The notes beneath the pieces are model-generated. The model was given only the letters and a program-made list of their open reading frames with translations. It was not told where the DNA came from and ran no database searches. Both the position numbers and the translations under genes were made by a program. A stretch of 63,826 nt of DNA, counting the filler, from Collodictyon triciliatum (Eukaryota), in NCBI GenBank assembly GCA_043381765.1. It is 22 parts of 22 records of this genome, joined end to end, with 100 filler letters (N's around TTAATTAATTAA, not from the genome) between each part and the next. Parts side by side here need not be neighbours in the genome. Positions count along the whole stretch, not along the records: positions 14,743 to 17,589 come from JBHJMP010008200.1; 21 more parts are not named here. One strand, 5' to 3'. Below, piece by piece: positions 8,847-58,814 of this stretch (position 1 is its first letter; the number at the start of each line of letters is the position of its first letter).

Positions 8847-10074
8847 GATGATGAGACCATAGCATCAGGGATCTTCTTGATAGCAAAGACGCCCTCCTTT
8901 AGCTGCACCTTGTACGCCATCCCGAAGCCGCCCTTGCCCAGGAAGTTCTCCCGCGTCTCAAAGTCCGTGGTTAGCAGGTCTGCATACTTGCCCAGGGTCA
9001 GGCGGCTAGGGGCTGATTTGGTTTGATGTCAGAGGCCGCCTTGTAGGAGTATCAGGGAATGCAAAGGAAGAGGACAATGTTCTCACTTACTTGCTGCTCT
9101 AGCTTCACGGACTTCTTCAGCTTTGCGAGCTTCTACAGGTTTACCAGCTCCTTTCGCATTGTGCACTAATTCGGCTTTGTCGATCTTTGTTAATTTATAG
9201 CACATTAATAGGTAGCAAGGTACGTTTCCGGTTGAATACTTAATTCTGAATAAATCTCATGAGTATCAGGTATGCATTGGGAGGTCACTTGTGAGGAAAA
9301 GCCACATACGTAATCAGTTAATATACTGCGACGAAACTCGTCCAGTGTCGGGCGCTCCTCAGGTGTTTCATTAAGTGCCTTGATCAGCAGCTCTTTCATT
9401 TTCGGATCGGTAATTTTTTTTGTGTCAAAGCGGCGGACTATGGGAATCTTTTTCAAGAGAAGCATCCATAAAATAAGCCCGACTGAGTAAACATCGCTCT
9501 TCTCTCCCGCATAAGAGCCAGAGCGGAACAATTCTGGCGGATCTAACGTAAGGTTTGGTCTTCTAGAAGATGTGCCTTTGCGTTGAAGACTTTCACGGAG
9601 CTTGAGCATCCCAAAATCACGAAGAGCGACACTTCCATCAGCCTTCAGAATTATGTTGTCGGGCTTGATGTTGTAATGATACGTTCCATGAGAGTGTAAA
9701 AATGAAACACCGTCGCAGATCATTTGCACTAATACTTTGATCTTTTCCAGGTCGAAGTTATGCGTGGGAATGATTTCCTCGAGGGTACGTCCTTCGTAGA
9801 ACTCGCGGACGATATGTAAAGTGCCCGCGCTAACATAAGCACCCAGGTAGGATAAAACCCCGCTGTGTCGAGGCAAAGCAACAAGCTTACCGACTTCTTC
9901 CATGATGAGCTCGACATCTTCACGTTTGTGGAGCTGTGATATTTCATATTCTTTGACAGCGACGGTCTGTCCTGTTCTTTTATCTCGAGCTTGGATAATA
10001 CGGTGATCTTCTGCGCCGAATAAAAGATCACCTGGTGTAATGTCAGAGCTTTGGACTTTGACAAATTGCGCCAT
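8847..10074 (-). CDS. Tandem kinase protein: N-terminal pseudokinase followed by the start of a second kinase domain (3'-partial)
   Basis: Domain 1 has VAVK, HYNIKPDN, DFG and SDVYS but no Gly-rich loop. A downstream exon at about 8847-9010 reads FLGKGGFGMAYKVQLKEGVFAIKK. Confidence 0.8.
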
Positions 10075-10149
10075 CCGCTGCCTTCTCTGTTGTGTCGAGT
10101 TTTTGGCGTGGATATTAGTATTATGGCAATTTCTACGATTTATCATTTC

Positions 10150-10435
10150 ATTGTTTGTTTTTTGTTGTTTGTTTTTTGTTGTTTGTTGTTTGTTGTTTGT
10201 TTGTTTTTTGTTTTTTGTTGTTTGTTGTTTGTTTTTTGTTGTTTGTTTTTTGTTGTTTGTTTTTTGTTGTTTGTTTTTTGTTGTTTGTTTTTTGTTGTTT
10301 GTTGTTTGTTTTTTGTTGTTTGTTTTTTGTTGTTTGTTGTTTGTTGTTTGTTGTTTGTTTTTTGTTTGTTTTTTTGTTTGTTTGTTTTTTTGTTTGTTTT
10401 TTTGTTTGTTTTTCGTTTTTTGTTTCTTGTTTTGG
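10150..10435. repeat. Degenerate (TTG/TTTG)n low-complexity tract
   Basis: Directly visible; it produces spurious overlapping ORFs. Confidence 0.9.
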
Positions 10436-11199
10436 TTCTTCTGTTGTGTTGCGTCCTTGCTGCAGGTGGATACTGTTGTGGTGGGAGTGCAATAACAAAA
10501 ATGACAAGAAGGAAAGGTAAAATGTCTTTATAGAGGTGAATCAGGGAATGATTCAAACGTGAATTCCCTATTGTGGATTTCATCCCTCGATTGATGTGGG
10601 TCTATTTGATGTCTACTATACATATTTGTCAAGATTGCTTTACATGGTATCAGAAAGCCGGTGCGTAAAAAGAAGACACAAAACAAGTTGTGCCAAAAGA
10701 GTGAAAAGATTGTCGATATCTCAAGCTTAAAAAGTTTGCGAGTTTGTTGGATAATGTCTTTGCAATATTTCTCATTACTGAAATCGACAATCATAATCAA
10801 GTCGTACAATCAGCAAAATCACACGAAAGCACTTCGGGTTGGTACTGATTTATTTTTTTTTGGTCGTAGCGGTTTGTGGTAGAAGTAAGAGACACGACTT
10901 AAGTTTTTGATTTGATGTTGAACCCTTAAAATCTCCATGTTCCTAAACAAAGTAAATTAAAAAGTACCCCGAAATAAAAAAATAACAACATCGCTACAAA
11001 TGGTCGATAGAAAGCAGAAGGCAGGTATCCTTATGATTCTGAAAATATACATGTCCATTAGTCATTTGTAGATTATTACAGGAAATAAAATGTTGATGAT
11101 AGAAATATTAAACTTTTCCAACCAATATTATACACAGTTTAAAAGACAGACACAAATGATAATCATCAGCTCTGCACATTTTCCTGCTCATGCTCCCTT

Positions 11200-14570: not shown

Positions 14571-14642
<72 letters not shown>

Positions 14643-14742
14643 NNNNNNNNNNNNNNNNNNNNNNNNNNNNNNNNNNNNNNNNNNNNTTAATTAATTAANN
14701 NNNNNNNNNNNNNNNNNNNNNNNNNNNNNNNNNNNNNNNNNN

Positions 14743-14863
14743 CTACTCGGGTAGGGCCGAATTCTCCGCCATTGAATGGGGTTACTTTGGTGGTGTGACG
14801 GGCCAGAACTTTGTCATTGTAGTTCCGAATCTTCATGTACTTCGCTTCGCTAGGATACTCCAT
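14743..14863 (-). CDS. N-terminal 40 aa of a probable double-jelly-roll major capsid protein (partial, not in the ORF track)
   Basis: Manual translation MEYPSEAKYMKIRNYNDKVLARHTTKVTPFNGGEFGPTRV is open to the contig edge. The P..l.Y…v.P.NG..F.P pattern resembles PLV/Polinton MCP starts, and the TCT(-13) motif precedes the ATG. Confidence 0.5.
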
Positions 14864-14990
14864 GCATACAGCAAGAAATTAATTTCAGATCAAACGCGCC
14901 CCAGAATAAAATGGGCATCGGATATCTCCTTGCAAATGTCCCCTTGCAAATGTCCCCTTTTAGGGCCCTTCCAAAACTATTTTTAATTTG

Positions 14991-15024
14991 ACCTTACCTT
15001 AGATGAAATTGGGTAAGGTAAGGT
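14991..15024. repeat. 11-bp perfect inverted repeat (hairpin) flanked by short tandem duplications
   Basis: ACCTTACCTTA (14991-15001) pairs with TAAGGTAAGGT (15014-15024). CCTTGCAAATGTCC x2 at 14928-14955 and AGGATAAACAT x2 at 15069-15090. Confidence 0.85.
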
Positions 15025-15181
15025 ATATTTATCCATCGACTTTCTATATTTTGGGGGTTGAACAAGTAAGGATAAACATAGGATAAACATAAAAATATGA
15101 GACTGAAAGAAGTAAGGAGACATGCCAGTGCCCATTTTCTTCTGGAGGATGAACAGGACTTAAACAGGGGATCTGCATTGT

Positions 15182-15541
15182 TTACCTAAATCTCAATTCT
15201 CGCCCGTGAGTGGCTAGCGCATAAGCCTGCCCCAGGTCATGGATGCCGGAGCCTAAACTCTTTGTATTTATTTTCTTGACGTCCAGGTCTCCCAGAGTGC
15301 TCAACCCCCTACCCAGGTAATTGGCTGCCTTGATAGTGCTGACCAGGATGTTGGTGATGGTCTGGATGGCCGGCTTCACTCCAGTACTCGTCAATAAATT
15401 GTCGACCAGTCCCATGCTGGCATCGTCTAGTTTCACATATGCGTTGTTGAGCCCCTCTAATCGTCTTATCGCTCTATCAGTTGATGTAGTAAGAAATCGC
15501 CCTACCCCGCGCGCGCCTCTTTGTGCGTAATTTACGATCAT
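15182..15541 (-). CDS. 119-aa hypothetical basic, amphipathic-helical protein of the putative viral element
   Basis: Complete ATG-to-stop ORF with TCT(-13), divergent from the 15574 ORF with a 32-bp gap. Confidence 0.65.
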   Translation of the reverse strand: MIVNYAQRGARGVGRFLTTSTDRAIRRLEGLNNAYVKLDDASMGLVDNLLTSTGVKPAIQTITNILVSTIKAANYLGRGLSTLGDLDVKKINTKSLGSGIHDLGQAYALATHGRELRFR

Positions 15542-15573
15542 ACTGAGGCACAGATAATAATCTAGGGTAAAGC

Positions 15574-17589
15574 ATGAGCAGATTCACTCCAGGCCAAAAA
15601 GATAAAATAGAGGGAGACATAGCAGATGCTTTGATATTTGAGGACAAAGCAAATAGAGGAACATCAGGAAAGATTATAACTAAATACAGGACAAAATTAA
15701 AAAGCCTATGGCATGGAAAAGACAAGGGGCGCTCAGAAAACTTACTATTACCAAGCTTAAAAGAATACATAAACCCTGACGGTGAGAAATATTTTATAAA
15801 GCGTATACCGACACAACACGCAGCTATTGTAAATCAAATTGCCGTACTGCGTTTTCCAAGAGACACGCCTGGAGAATCATACGCTGCAGCAGAAGAAGAG
15901 ATAAAGAAAGCATTAAAAGAAGATGAAGAATTTCAGCACAAATACTTTAGAAATATATGGGCACTTACACAAAAAGCAGACGGTGGAGGACACCATTTAA
16001 CATCATGGGCTAATTTAAATACTGCGTTCTCATATGCATATTTTTATGCTGGAATAGATGCTGAAAAAATTCCTGATCCTTCACCGCAACCAGCCCCTTC
16101 ACAGCCAGCTACACGCCGTGTAAGTCCAGGCGATGCAAGGTCAGAATCAACCGCATTTGCTGCACCGGCCCCACTCCCACAGGTTGAAGAAGAAGAAGAC
16201 CCAGAAGAAGACCCAGAAGAAGACCCAGAAGAAGACGAAGAAGAACAAGAAGAAGAAGGTGAATGGGAGCCTGATATTACTGAAGACGAAATGATACAAA
16301 GACGACTTACACTACGGGAACAATACAAAAGAAAGAAGGAAGTTTTTCTGATGCCCTATCTTCAGGTACGCAAGCGAGGAATAGCACAACCAGACCACTT
16401 ACATGCTATTGGCAATCAAATACTAGCAAGGTTACGAGACAGAAACATCATAGATAATTATAGAGATCTACCTTCGATAACTTCACAGACAGAATTTTTA
16501 GAAGCAGCCGATGAAATGATTGTTGAGCATATGGGCGGAGAACCAGTCTTGTTAGCGCTACATGAATTAGCAGACGAAGATAGAGCCCCTGACCTCTCAT
16601 TTAACTATGCTCAGATTGAAATCATGATGCTTTCTAAGCTGGCTATTGAAGAATTGTATGTCGAAAAAGTTAAGAAACAAATAGCTGACGATGCACGTGC
16701 TAAACGAGCAGCCGCACTAGAAGAAAAAAGAAAAGAAGCCGCACTCAAAGAACAACAAAGAAAAAAAGAAATACTAGATCGTAAACTTCAAAAGAGAGCT
16801 GAACAAAATCAAAATCCAAGTGTTACTGAAAGACAGACATTAGCTAATGAAATCGAATCGCTGAGAAGAGAATTAGAATCACAAACAGCCGTGTCCTCGA
16901 TCATTCCTTCACAGGTACCACTCACTTTTCAAAAACAGCTTGACATTGTTAATCTTCGCAAACAATTAGAAGCAATGAATGCACAGAATGAATCATTAAT
17001 TGATGGTGTTGATATAGCTGAGACCAACATAATGACTGCCGGTTTGATACAAGACATAGTGGAACTACAACGTGCCGCTGTGCGTGTGGCAGCTATCGAA
17101 CAACTGGCCGAAGACGCACAACAACAACAGATCGATTTGCTACTGAACGATTATCCTGACTTACTGGATCAACAACTCGATATATTAGATCAACAGTTTT
17201 TATTGTATGACTTTCTGACACCCAAGAAAATTTCACGACAGCTTGACACTTCTCTTCAATCTTTGATTTCTAACGTCTCTCGTCGCAATCTCTCTTTCGA
17301 AAGCGCACTAGACACATCTATCCAAGTTAACGCAGATGACCCAGACACAACCGGAATTGACGATCAAGGCGGGTACCTCACAGCCGCACAGTCACCCATC
17401 CTTACACCTGTACAATCAGCATCAGCAACTCCTTTCATGTCACCTGCCAGAACACCAGTCAGACCCGGACCCCAAACAAGAATTGGAGGCAACAATGTAA
17501 CTACGGATGTTTTTGCGGTACCCGGAGCGCCTATACCCAGACCAAAGACAACATTAAGTCGTTCTGAATCAAGTGCCCAATCTGACCCG
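15574..17589 (+). CDS. Large intronless ORFan (>670 aa, 3'-partial) with an acidic EEDP repeat, coiled coil and S/T/P-rich tail
   Basis: A 2-kb uninterrupted ORF in an intron-rich genome, preceded by TCTA(-13). No family recognised. Confidence 0.85.
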
Positions 17590-24239: not shown

Positions 24240-24266
24240 TTGTAAACATTTTTAAAATGTTTACAA
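24240..24266. promoter_or_regulatory. 27-bp palindrome in the divergent intergenic region
   Basis: TTGTAAACATTTT-T-AAAATGTTTACAA: perfect 13-bp arms ending 4 nt before the ATG at 24271. Confidence 0.7.
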
Positions 24267-24270
24267 TGAT

Positions 24271-25038
24271 ATGGACAAAGCGTTTTACATTTATGTTGAT
24301 TCTGAAAACCGAGAAAGCGGAAGTATCGCAGACTTTAATTTCGCAACAACTCAGAACAGATATGTGTCAAGCAAAGCAAAAATCGGATTAGAGAGCATCC
24401 AAATACCGAATGCCGTACACAATGTTACGAGTGCCAATAATGAATTGGCTTTTCTTTGCCAAGTCGGAGCAGACAGCCCCGTTTCATACAATATTTCACT
24501 TGAGACTGGACTACAAACAATCAATGAAATAGTCAGTGACATTAGAACAAAGATGAACGCAGTCACGGCATCCCAGTCAGCTAATGCAGTTGTTTCAGTT
24601 TCATTTCTTACCGGCAAACAGAAGATTGCTATCAAAGGAGACGGAGCATCAATCTCATATCAATTGTTTGTGAATTCGTCGACGTGCCGGGACCTAATTG
24701 GGCTGACGGCCAATCTATCATTCAATACGTCTTTTGTGGAGCTACAGAATACGGTCAATATTCGACCTTTTGATTATGTGTACCTGGTCAGCCCGAACAT
24801 TCAGAGTTCGAGCTTTGCCAGCAATATAGGCGGCAATGGCATCATCGCAAAAATACCGCTGACTCTTGGTTCACGGTACTCGAGTTATTACGAGGTCAAC
24901 GACAACATTCTCGAGAATCTGATGGACTGCTCGTATATCCCGTTCAGCTGGAATTTCAGATTGGTAGATAGACTGGGACGGACAATAAATCTGTTACAAG
25001 ACTATTCGTTTATGCTGCGTGTAATTCCCGAGGAATAA
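24271..25038 (+). CDS. Penton/minor capsid protein-like (single jelly-roll), 255 aa
   Basis: YIYVDSENRESGSIADF, IGLESIQIPNAVHNVTSANNELAF, IIAKIPL and FRLVDRLGRTINLLQDYSFML match the idS.dR…F / iPns.yni…nN / iiakIp / l.D..g..i.l..dwsf.l pattern of PLV/NCLDV pentons. Confidence 0.75.
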   Translation: MDKAFYIYVDSENRESGSIADFNFATTQNRYVSSKAKIGLESIQIPNAVHNVTSANNELAFLCQVGADSPVSYNISLETGLQTINEIVSDIRTKMNAVTASQSANAVVSVSFLTGKQKIAIKGDGASISYQLFVNSSTCRDLIGLTANLSFNTSFVELQNTVNIRPFDYVYLVSPNIQSSSFASNIGGNGIIAKIPLTLGSRYSSYYEVNDNILENLMDCSYIPFSWNFRLVDRLGRTINLLQDYSFMLRVIPEE

Positions 25039-55001: not shown

Positions 55002-57509
55002 AAAAAAAAAAAACNNNNNNNNNNNNNNNNNNNNNNNNNNNNNNNNNNNNNNNNNNNNTTAATTAATTAANNNNNNNNNNNNNNNNNNNNNNNNNNNNNN
55101 NNNNNNNNNNNNNNTATTCTATTTTTATTCTATTTTTATTCTATTTTTATTCTATTTTTATTCTATTTTTATTCTATTTTTATTCTATTTTTATTCTATT
55201 TTTATTCTATTTTTATGGTGTACCTATGTTTAATTTCAACATATATGCTGGCAAAAATCGAAAATATTGAAATATTACTCTAAGGCTATCACTAGTGATT
55301 TTTAATGTGGCTGTAGGATAACAATTTGTACCTGAAGATTGCTGCTGGTTTATTTGGATTTTCAGCTTTCTTTTTTATGGTTAGCTTTGCTGCTTGGATT
55401 GATAATGCTCATGAAGCTGTAAAAGAGTTAGCAAAGCAGGTCTTTTTGTTTTAACAAGACATGTCCGCATTTATACACACCTCGACTGTATTTGTAAAAG
55501 TAGACATAATGAGTTTTCTTGTATATTAATTCACTATAGAAAAGGAAATATTGATTATCCTGTATTAGACTTACTTGGCTATTTATTATTATTTTTTTTG
55601 GTCTTCATTTCAATATGCTGGGGCCATAAATTGTTGGCCGTAGTTTCTTGTGTATATCTATACTATTATTCCTCATTGTAGTACCACTGTACGCTTTAAT
55701 AGTTATTTAGAATGCATGAACCAACTCATAGGACCCTACTTGCCATGCTCGACTCGGGGACACCATCAATCTTATCATCACCTCCTTCGTTTTTTTGATT
55801 CTTGCCACACTCATCTCTGTTTATGTTTTAATAAAAGGAAATACATACGGAGAAAGCGCACCGATTACCCCGGATGAATGAGGTTTGCTCTCTATTTGTG
55901 GGCTAACATAATGCTCTTAATTCATCTATTCTATGACTTTTACTCTACCGTTCAAGATTCTAATCATGACATGTTTAAACTTATCCACCGCCCTCCACAA
56001 TTTAATAACCACATGATTGCTATTATCGACTAGGCCACGATATGTCACACCAGAGTATTTCATATTTTCTTGTCATGAAATAAAATAGTGGCAACACTCA
56101 TCCACGAAAACTTGATGTTTCCCATGCCTCGCTCGATTATAATTACCTCTTCCCCCCCCCCCCCCCCCCCCCCCCCCCCTTCCCCTCTTATCCAATACTC
56201 GCTTCAAAAAGTATCGCCATCCAAAGCCCAAGTAAATCACATTGATCAGGAGTGCGCGCAGAATGCCAGGGTGATTAGCAAGGTCTCATTCAAATATAGG
56301 ACTCAAGCTTTTGACCTAGCAATATCGGGATGCAATCCTTGGTAACCCGATCTCAAAAATGGACCATCTCGATATAGGTCGGTAGAAAAAGGATACAATT
56401 CTCTCAACCGCGTTAAACGAAAAAGAAAGAAAAAAGGAAGAGATGAAGACAACCCACTGGCACCCAAAGATACGGACATCTTGCATTTTGCAGAGAAACC
56501 CTGTGGGGCACAGACCTTTCAGTGTTTATTGTCCTTTTGTGAAATAGAGGGAAAATTAAGTAGTCACGCTAATTTATTAATCTTAATCTGGATATTAATT
56601 CATGTATCCAGTGAATCTTTTAAAATCACATTTATCTGTCAGATTAGCAAAAATCATAACTTATATATAGCACCAAGTATTATATCTCTCCATAATCAGT
56701 GCGCTGTCTGCAGTATATCAGCTTGAATAATTCAGTGAAGCGAAAGTTGAATAAGGGACAGTATTAGGTAATTTTCCTTTTTCCCTCCGAATGTTCCACG
56801 GGAGAAAAAGACCAAAAATTGTATGAAGAAGGACACAATGTATACAAAAAGTGACTAAAATCATTGAATTTATTGTGTCTACATGTCAACCTAATACACC
56901 CACAAGCTAGTAATTATGTCCCTCGGGGAAGAGGGTTGCGCGCCAATCAATTGTTCTTGGGTCATTCTGAGACACCCGTCCGCGGCAACACTGATCAAGT
57001 GTTTCACCGTGTCCTCGTCTCGGATTCACCCAACACCCAACCCACGAATCATCTCTGGTCTCTGCGTTCTCCGACACTTGGACACATACATAAAGCCCAG
57101 TGCACTGCTGACCCAGGGAGCTCTTTCCTTGCGTCTCAGTCTCATGCCGCACTCTTTTCCAATTCACTTACTCATACACTGCACAATGAATAAGCAGCCT
57201 CTCGCTTGACTGGAAACAAGCACTAAGAGTCTGCAAAATAATATTTCTCAATATCAAGCAAATAGAAGCTGGCTAAATTATTCCTTTCCTATCTCTCTCT
57301 CTTTTTCCTCCCTGTGAACGACCTAAGCCTAGTTCTTGTCGCTACCATCACCATACCATCGCATCTGAGAAACAAGCAACTCTTGTGAATTGTAAACTAT
57401 ATACTTAAGATTATTGATCAAACATCAAACCACGCAGACTTTCTCCCCGATTTCCAAAATTCACTCCCAAAGCCACTCCGGCTCCCCTCCAAACAAAAAA
57501 GCCCGATCA

Positions 57510-57952
57510 ATGAGTACTGCCGCACTTCCCCACTCTGGATTGGATGAAAACCTCCAAAGCCGCCAACTCGCCGTCTACGGCCGTCAAGCCATGGGCAAAC
57601 TGTCCCAGGCACACGTTCTGATCACCGGACTCACTGGCCTCGGCGCTGAAGTCGCAAAGAACGTTTCACTCGCCAATGTCCGCCACATCACGCTTCATGA
57701 CCCGCGCCCAGTCGAACTGCGAGACCTTTCGTCTCAGTTCTTTGCCACGCCAGAAGATGTCGCAGCCTCTCGAACAAAGGCTGACTCCTGCCTGCGCCAT
57801 GTGCAGGAGCTGAATCCGTCTGTTAGTGTGGATGTTCTCTCGTCTGCCCAAGTCAGTGCGCATGACATCGCTGAGAAGAAGATCACTGTCCTTGTGGCTG
57901 TGGACTGCCCTCGCGATGAGGCTGTGCGTCTGAATGAGCTTTGCCGCAAAGC
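57510..57952 (+). CDS. UBA1: Ubiquitin-activating enzyme E1, N-terminal part
   Basis: LDENLQSRQLAVYGRQAMGKL…GLTGLGAEVAKNVSLANV…DLSSQFF…QELNPSV. The frame is open upstream and includes an NLS-like PPNKKAR. Confidence 0.93.
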
Positions 57953-58061: not shown

Positions 58062-58814
58062 TTACCGATTGGACTTGGCAACACGCTCGAGTTCGTCCTT
58101 CTTCTTGATGGCGTAGGAATTGGAGGAGCCCTTGGCGGCATTGATGAGCTCATCGGCCAGGCACTCGGCAATGGTCTTGATGTTGCGGAAGGCAGCCTCG
58201 CGGGCTCCAGTGACAAGCAGGTAGATGCCCTGGTTGACGCGACGGAGGGGAGACACGTCCACAGCCTGACGACGGACAGTACCAGAGGAGCCGATACGGG
58301 TCGAGTCTTCGCGGGGGCCAGCGTTGGCAATAGCGTCAACAACGATTTGGACGGGGTTGCCGTCGGTCAGCAGATGCATTATTTCAAAGGCGTTCTTGAC
58401 AATCTGGACGGCCTTATACTTCTTGCCGTTGTTGCGGCCGTGCATCATGAGCGAGTTGACCAGGCGCTCGACAATGGGGCACTGAGACTTGCGGAAGCGC
58501 TTAACATTGTAGCGGCCAGCAGTGTGGGGTAGGTAGACGGCGGCCTTGCCTCTGACAGCCAGGTAGTCCTGTAATTAAAGCAGGCCTTGTTAGAAATTCA
58601 CATCTGGCCTGGTATTCCTCTACTTGGCTGGCGTTTGGTCGCTGAGTGGAAGGGAAAATGATTGCACCTGGAGGGACAAGTCAGAGACGTTGACGTCTTC
58701 CAGAGACCTGTTGCGAAGTAAGAGTGAGGGTTGTTCTCAAAATGAAGGTCGGCGAATACAAGCAAAAGAGAATCGAGATCCATACCAGCGATTGAAGATC
58801 TTGATTTCAGTCAT
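58062..58814 (-). CDS. RPS5: 40S ribosomal protein S5 (uS7), three exons
   Basis: [26 protein letters not shown]…PHTAGRY…[10 protein letters not shown]…[13 protein letters not shown]. Confidence 0.98.

Follow-up and report, generated by a model that had tools for sequence, protein, structure and literature searches.

Probable 5′ end of a polinton-like virus major capsid protein gene at a contig edge of the Collodictyon triciliatum assembly

Introduction

Polinton-like viruses (PLVs) have genomes of about 14-40 kb and, beside the major capsid protein (MCP), carry as hallmark genes a single jelly-roll penton protein and an FtsK/A32-type packaging ATPase; Polintons/Mavericks proper are marked by a protein-primed PolB, a retroviral-type integrase and terminal inverted repeats. 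The double jelly-roll fold consists of two consecutive eight-stranded jelly rolls on one polypeptide, and capsid proteins with this fold form trimers, which are the pseudo-hexagonal capsomers.

PLV MCPs are described as proteins of 400-600 aa encoded on metagenomic contigs of 10-40 kb, mostly of aquatic origin (PMC7805220), and as escaping BLAST-level and standard library searches, being confirmed by profile or structure methods (PMC7805220; 10.64898/2026.06.19.733378). According to these and related accounts, PLVs abound in aquatic metagenomes and are found as insertions in the genomes of many protists (PMC7805220, PMC12220804), and Bellas and Sommaruga (2026) describe a continuum that leads from 15-kb PLVs to Nucleocytoviricota (10.64898/2026.06.19.733378). 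As to gene expression, TCTA flanked by AT-rich sequence is given as the late promoter of CroV and also as the promoter of mavirus and of type-4 EMALEs, and the sharing of this CroV-type promoter is reported to underlie the reactivation of virophages that giant viruses induce (PMC8547959; 10.1101/068312). The same late motif is reported in the chlorarachniophyte virus ChlorV (PMC13196603), and the PLV PgVV is reported to borrow a different helper motif, AAAATTGA (10.1101/2022.07.28.501842).

The gene start described here, which lies at the edge of a short contig, resembles the PLV MCPs (TVS/TsV-N1, PgVV/Gezel, Gossevirus; Aquintoviricetes and neighbours) in the double jelly-roll and the length of about 400-600 aa of its family, in the size of the contigs that bear its relatives (up to 17 kb), in the blindness of standard libraries to it and in a fold confirmed by a model, but differs from PLVs in that its contig holds no PLV hallmark partner gene. 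With mavirus and EMALE04 it shares a double jelly-roll MCP and a TCT(A) core in an AT-rich setting, and the mavirus MCP is among its structural matches; in contrast, the virophage MCP families have no sequence similarity to the MCP family found here.

Results

The window and its contigs

The window, that is, the whole stretch of 63,826 nucleotides from assembly GCA_043381765.1 that was analysed, consists of 22 contigs of 1983-2865 bases each, ordered roughly by falling length and separated by 21 identical artificial joiners (44 N, TTAATTAATTAA and 44 N; for example, 14643-14742). Because the contigs are unrelated and artificially joined, the neighbourhood of one contig to another is without biological meaning. 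Ordinary eukaryotic genes or exons were found on most of them, including the following:

9208-10527 and 39759-40283, protein kinase domains
44269-45447, GT64 glycosyltransferase
57396-57950, ThiF-family enzyme
58065-58574, cytosolic ribosomal protein uS7/S5

Comparison of the uS7 protein with the PDB confirmed the eukaryotic nature of the other contigs and yielded no lineage signal. At 14576-14642, a long (AAT)n microsatellite reaches the right end of contig 5 and is probably the cause of the assembly break there. In contig 10, a gap of 597 N at 27372-27968 falls within a stretch of very low GC content (0.14-0.25 over 26001-28000, a figure possibly lowered by the Ns).

A gene start at the left edge of contig 6

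The features of contig 6 that are dealt with below are the following:

14743-17589, contig 6 (JBHJMP010008200.1), with the putative MCP start at its left edge
14744..14863, minus strand, first 40 codons of a probable double jelly-roll MCP gene, as judged from homology, motif conservation and the model of a relative
14863-14861, minus strand, ATG of the putative MCP gene, which the contig edge truncates at 14743
14874..14886, minus strand, promoter-like '-13 motif' of this gene (A/T run and TCT at -13..-11)
14864..15181, spacer of 318 bases separating the MCP start from the 119-aa ORF
14901-14917 and 15129-15145, pair of 17-nt inverted repeats in the spacer, 94% complementary and 211 bases apart
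14928-14959, 14-base tandem repeat in the spacer
about 14990-15024, hairpin with an 11-bp stem (ACCTTACCTTA/TAAGGTAAGGT) in the spacer
15069-15091, 11-base tandem repeat in the spacer
15182..15541, minus strand, 119-aa ORF upstream of the MCP gene and in the same orientation, with TCT at -13
15574..17589, plus strand, 672-codon ORF with TCTA at -13, its 3′ end open at the right end of the contig

The earlier note had reported a 40-codon minus-strand frame running off the contig. Translation of the minus strand of 14743-14863 gave exactly the 40 residues quoted there; their codons lie at 14863-14744, base 14743 being the spare first base of contig 6, and the frame reaches the contig edge without a stop. 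Its length is no proof of a gene, because 21 ORFs of at least 30 aa are present on this 2.8-kb contig.

Evidence for a gene came from a search of a database of 5.8 billion proteins, restricted to longer proteins. All 21 candidates returned (463-552 aa) match the 40 residues, with 64-97% identity over 78-100% of the query and E values from 3e-17 to 1.6e-10. By tblastn, the match covers residues 1-40 or 3-41 of the homologues, or residues 1-31 in one protein that starts later. Since all 21 match at their own N-termini, the frame is a real gene start, of a kind that an ORF filter would miss, just as the earlier note had supposed when it spoke of an MCP N-terminus hidden from the ORF track. The closest relative, P0003, shares 38 of its first 40 residues (95%) with the window fragment. 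The longest contigs that bear the 21 close relatives measure 2.0-17.2 kb and may be fragments. In a set of 1.84 billion representative proteins, a profile built from the 21 sequences detected 256 relatives at E ≤ 1e-3, mostly of 400-600 aa (48 of them at E ≤ 1e-10 and 9 at E ≤ 1e-30).

The window contains 40 of the roughly 530 codons of the MCP gene, and the fold evidence given below comes from a relative. A tblastn search with the 21 relatives did not find the other ~490 codons in the window, all other matches having E ≥ 0.4; these codons would lie beyond it, past an assembly break that falls 120 bases into the gene.

Sequence libraries and the family

The 21 homologues have no precomputed Pfam domain and are named only 'hypothetical protein' in their source. 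The 40-aa fragment has no match in Pfam, and four close relatives gave no capsid family there at E ≤ 10; with 149 remote relatives, Pfam returned a single weak Capsid_N match below its cut-off plus three unrelated sub-threshold matches. Nothing meaningful was found in PHROGs; one chance-level match each was obtained when the PDB sequences were searched with the profiles of 21 and of 117 members; and tblastn of P0003 against a phage collection gave no match. Scanning of bacterial and archaeal genome contigs with the 21-sequence profile yielded 118 pattern stretches, with no relative among them, and three short peptide motifs of the family occur nowhere in one supplement of PMC7805220. No curated sequence family covers this MCP family, and Pfam, PHROGs and PDB sequence searches are blind to its members.

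Conservation of the N-terminus and predicted fold

An alignment of 117 rows was assembled from the 21 close relatives and 96 of the best 149 of the 256 relatives, leaving out six fragments of <300 aa and P0125-P0171. The 96 remote relatives are 18-55% identical to P0003. Conservation of the N-terminal motif was scored in them, with denominators that vary by position:

P4, kept in 78 of 92
Y/F9, kept in 69 of 88
P29, kept in 82 of 93
N31, kept in 46 of 90
G32, kept in 56 of 91
F/Y35, kept in 79 of 92
P37, kept in 46 of 92

All seven scored positions are retained in the window copy. The P...Y and V.P.NG..F.P spacing, which had first been likened to the start of PLV/Polinton MCPs, is therefore a conserved feature of the family.

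The structure of P0003 was modelled with AlphaFold2 on the 117-sequence alignment (mean pLDDT 89.2 and pTM 0.89, with 330 of 530 residues at pLDDT ≥ 90). Foldseek found 250 matches to this model in the PDB at E ≤ 1e-3, and the best 29 of the 250 are all double jelly-roll capsid or scaffold proteins. The MCP of SGIV leads (8hif; E 1.6e-17, TM 0.59-0.62 by target length), followed by Vp54 of PBCV-1 (TM up to 0.67 by target length); the MCPs of Sputnik (E 5.9e-14) and mavirus (6g44; E 7.6e-12) are also present, and further matches among those listed are EhV-201, faustovirus and the D13 scaffold of vaccinia. In the structural alignments with SGIV and PBCV-1, sequence identity is 8-10%.

An earlier and shallower AlphaFold2 model of P0003, on 21 sequences (pLDDT 58.0, pTM 0.60), gave 235 matches in the PDB at E ≤ 1e-3, of which those listed are without exception double jelly-roll capsid proteins (SGIV, Sputnik, PBCV-1, mavirus, faustovirus, EhV-201 and PRD1 P3). 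Against the viral models of BFVD the same model had 116 matches at E ≤ 1e-3; the top one is unnamed (7e-17), and the unnamed leaders are followed by adintovirus and adomavirus LO7 and then by many NCLDV and virophage MCPs.

The modelling thus points to a double jelly-roll fold for the MCP family, of which the window copy represents residues 1-40 only. The check proposed in the earlier note, a double jelly-roll of several hundred residues, was found in the P0003 model by Foldseek, the fold being that of the relative and not of the window copy. Its proposal of a PLV/Polinton-type double jelly-roll N-terminus is likewise borne out, in that long relatives exist and the model of the closest one matches double jelly-roll capsids. 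In the P0003 model the 40 residues are arranged as follows:

Residues 1-18, N-terminal arm, mostly extended (pLDDT 74-86)
Residues 19-27, first beta-strand
Residues 29-37, conserved P.NG..F.P loop

Residues 29-40 lead to the next strands, at pLDDT 97. By analogy with known double jelly-roll capsids, the MCP would trimerise into pseudo-hexagonal capsomers, and the 40 residues would provide an N-terminal arm at the base of the capsid and the first strand of the first jelly roll.

Genes on contigs 6 and 9

The genes of contig 6 are tightly packed and have the -13 motif in common. The 119-aa ORF, upstream of the MCP start, has no match in Pfam, PHROGs or PDB sequences; the same three libraries gave no match for the 672-codon ORF, which is divergent from the 119-aa ORF across a gap of 32 bases. 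The 672-codon product has an acidic EEDP repeat (16186-16258), whose 12-base units run from 16191 to 16256, and long, coiled-coil-like K/E-rich stretches, and two large searches with the whole sequence and with residues 1-170 found no relative among proteins of near length. Within the spacer, the hairpin (-13.9 kcal/mol, z = -2.95; none of 200 shuffles was as stable) may be the terminator of the upstream 119-aa gene, and the 17-nt inverted repeat pair could point to the insertion of a small element or to a structure with a regulatory role.

The earlier note had further suggested that the gene would supply an MCP missing from another contig, which is probably contig 9:

23582..26427, contig 9, virus-like
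23863-23582, minus strand, N-terminus of a Walker-A ATPase, cut by the left edge
24196-23870, minus strand, 108-aa basic ORF
24271-25038, plus strand, 255-aa ORF with virus-like look-alikes
25055-26427, plus strand, G/T/N/S-rich ORF of at least 457 aa, possibly fibre-like

No MCP is present on contig 9. Its ORFs have no sequence match in Pfam or the PDB, and the 255-aa ORF gave nothing useful against the PDB; in the ESM Atlas the look-alikes of this ORF are viral clusters, one of which has DUF5901 in 14% of its members (recognition 2395). The 108-aa and 255-aa ORFs diverge from a gap that contains a near-perfect palindrome of 27 bases (24240-24266). Searches of the window with contigs 6 and 9 by blastn and tblastx found no second copy of either.

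A position-anchored signal upstream of the start codons

The MCP start is preceded by TCT at -13..-11 (14876-14874) and, before it, by a run of A/T only at -20..-14, the motif lying within a perfect palindrome, GAAATTAATTTC (14875-14886). As a signal of its own this 12-base palindrome was rejected: with one mismatch allowed, its 8 matches are no significant excess over the 7.75 expected. Since the palindrome is not enriched, a test of TC/TCT anchored by position was used instead.

The 25 bases before the start codons were aligned for seven starts on contigs 6 and 9. A run of A/T only at -20..-14, with T at -19, precedes all seven, and TCT is at -13..-11 in four of them. TC at exactly -13/-12 is found in all three genes of contig 6 and in two of the four of contig 9, where a third gene has it at -14; the full TCTA is seen in only two of the six motif-bearing starts. 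Counted over all ORFs, picked by a single rule, TC at -13/-12 precedes 5 of the 8 that belong to contigs 6 and 9 versus 1 of 59 on the other 20 contigs, where about 3 of 59 would be expected by chance (background, 5.6% of 2157 ATGs). The enrichment is significant (P = 3e-5; one-sided Fisher test), as a post hoc result on few genes and two contigs. The '-13 motif' of the earlier note is thus real, as an A/T run plus TCT before the MCP start codon with TC enriched on contigs 6 and 9. The one other ORF with TC at -13/-12, a 115-aa ORF on contig 1 (minus-strand start at 1085), also has it in an A/T-rich setting.

The motif is similar to the late promoter of CroV and to that of mavirus in its TCT(A) and its AT-rich setting, but differs in the scarcity of the full TCTA (two of six starts). 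The MCP gene, its two neighbours on contig 6 and genes of contig 9 would be transcribed from the A/T run plus TCT(A) located ~13 bases before the ATG, with transcription beginning just downstream of this signal and a leader of about 10 bases. Since the motif resembles the CroV late promoter, expression may depend on a giant-virus helper, a hypothesis that the promoter comparison makes conceivable but that we hold to be doubtful.

Intactness of the gene start

The MCP start might belong to a relic, that is, to a decayed and truncated endogenous copy, and not to a working gene; a relic would be compatible with the best explanation of what the sequence is. Such decay would fit a 2.8-kb unplaced contig of a eukaryotic assembly and the absence of the remainder of the gene from the window, and integrated PLVs are described as often fragmented (PMC12220804, PMC8547959). 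Against it, the 40-codon stretch is intact and its product shares 95% identity with a full-length relative, the adjoining 672-codon frame is open throughout, the motif next to the start is retained, and the break falls at the contig end and not at a mutation. A relic is thus rather unlikely, though by some way the alternative that survives best.

Which kind of virus

On the evidence of homology, motif conservation and the relative's model, 14863-14744 on the minus strand very probably holds the first codons of a gene that encodes a double jelly-roll MCP of ~520-550 residues and belongs to a small DNA virus of polinton-like type. By its fold alone the MCP cannot be assigned to PLVs, because its best structural matches are MCPs of giant viruses; the basis of the placement is the size of the protein and of the contigs, together with a lead from the ESM Atlas. 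There, the look-alikes are viral clusters, most often of Preplasmiviricota, a few of which have capsid Pfam families (in 10-29% of members); this result is a lead only, as its recognition value of 1997 is below the 2300 mark. Contig 6, a fragment of 2.8 kb, holds no penton, packaging ATPase, polymerase or integrase gene. 'PLV' is described as spanning several deep lineages (10.64898/2026.06.19.733378), and the MCP is therefore filed under PLV in the broad sense (Preplasmiviricota; the 'PLV'/Aquintoviricetes-type assemblage), with the group left unnamed.

Two other assignments were weighed. The first is a strict virophage MCP (Maveriviricetes, Sputnik- or mavirus-like) instead of a PLV one, to which the presence of Sputnik and mavirus among the structural matches (5.9e-14 and 7.6e-12) and the likeness of the TCT(A) motif to the promoter described for mavirus (PMC8547959) would lend themselves. 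However, iridovirus and chlorovirus MCPs fit the structure better than virophage MCPs do; the virophage MCP families PF21915 and PF22031, taken from the ESM Atlas listing, match none of the four close relatives (E ≤ 10) and none of the 149 remote ones (E ≤ 1e-3); and contigs 6 and 9, both fragments, hold no cysteine protease gene. A virophage origin in this strict sense is therefore improbable.

The second assignment is to a giant virus (Nucleocytoviricota) or to a relative of intermediate size, for example as a fragment of an endogenous giant virus. The top PDB matches, which are MCPs of an iridovirus, a chlorovirus and a coccolithovirus, agree with it, as does the weak Capsid_N match of one of the 149 remote relatives (P0100; 20.0 bits against a cut-off of 24), and the described continuum between PLVs and Nucleocytoviricota would leave room for it (10.64898/2026.06.19.733378). 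Yet the likeness to iridovirus and chlorovirus MCPs (SGIV, PBCV-1 Vp54) is one of structure, at that 8-10% identity: all 153 family members scanned stay below the gathering scores of PF04451 (Capsid_NCLDV) and PF16903 (Capsid_N), the capsid families of NCLDVs; the longest contigs of the close relatives measure only 2-17 kb, possibly as fragments; and the commonest phylum among the ESM Atlas look-alikes is, as a lead, Preplasmiviricota. A giant-virus origin has as slim a chance as a virophage one.

A chance open frame at the contig edge with no gene behind it, for which it can be said that forty codons are common (21 ORFs of at least 30 aa on contig 6 itself), is refuted by the homology search, in which 21 of 21 candidates out of 5.8 billion proteins match at their own N-termini (64-97% identity, E down to 3e-17), and is at odds with the family-conserved residues kept in the window copy.

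Discussion

The MCP start is one more ordinary PLV-type capsid gene fragment, cut by a break in a draft assembly, and the abundance of such elements in protist genomes and in aquatic metagenomes is already established (PMC7805220, PMC12220804). The virus would be either integrated in, or sequenced together with, the eukaryote to which the other contigs belong. Contig 9 may, tentatively, come from the same virus as contig 6 or from a related one, the sole link between them being the common -13 motif; it is plausible that contig 6 supplies the MCP absent from contig 9, on the basis of this motif and of the virus-like character of contig 9 only. Taken further, contigs 6 and 9 might be parts of one PLV of ~15-20 kb in this eukaryote, with all genes on the -13 signal of A/T run plus TCT(A), lying dormant like a virophage and awaiting a mimivirid helper; we put this forward as a speculative picture that has somewhat better prospects than a relic and still falls well short of probable.

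For the annotation of the assembly it matters that at least one, and probably two, of its short unplaced contigs are flagged here as viral and not cellular. A capsid function, and possibly a host, can also be linked to a family of metagenomic 'hypothetical proteins'. Should contigs 6 and 9 indeed form one helper-wired PLV, a host and a helper would be predicted for an MCP family that is so far host-less and metagenomic, and the element would also carry a gene of at least 672 aa without detectable relative. If, moreover, the -13 TCT(A) is a late promoter of giant-virus type, the element would be a candidate for an inducible, virophage-like defence, as is described for mavirus in Cafeteria (PMC8547959; 10.1101/068312).
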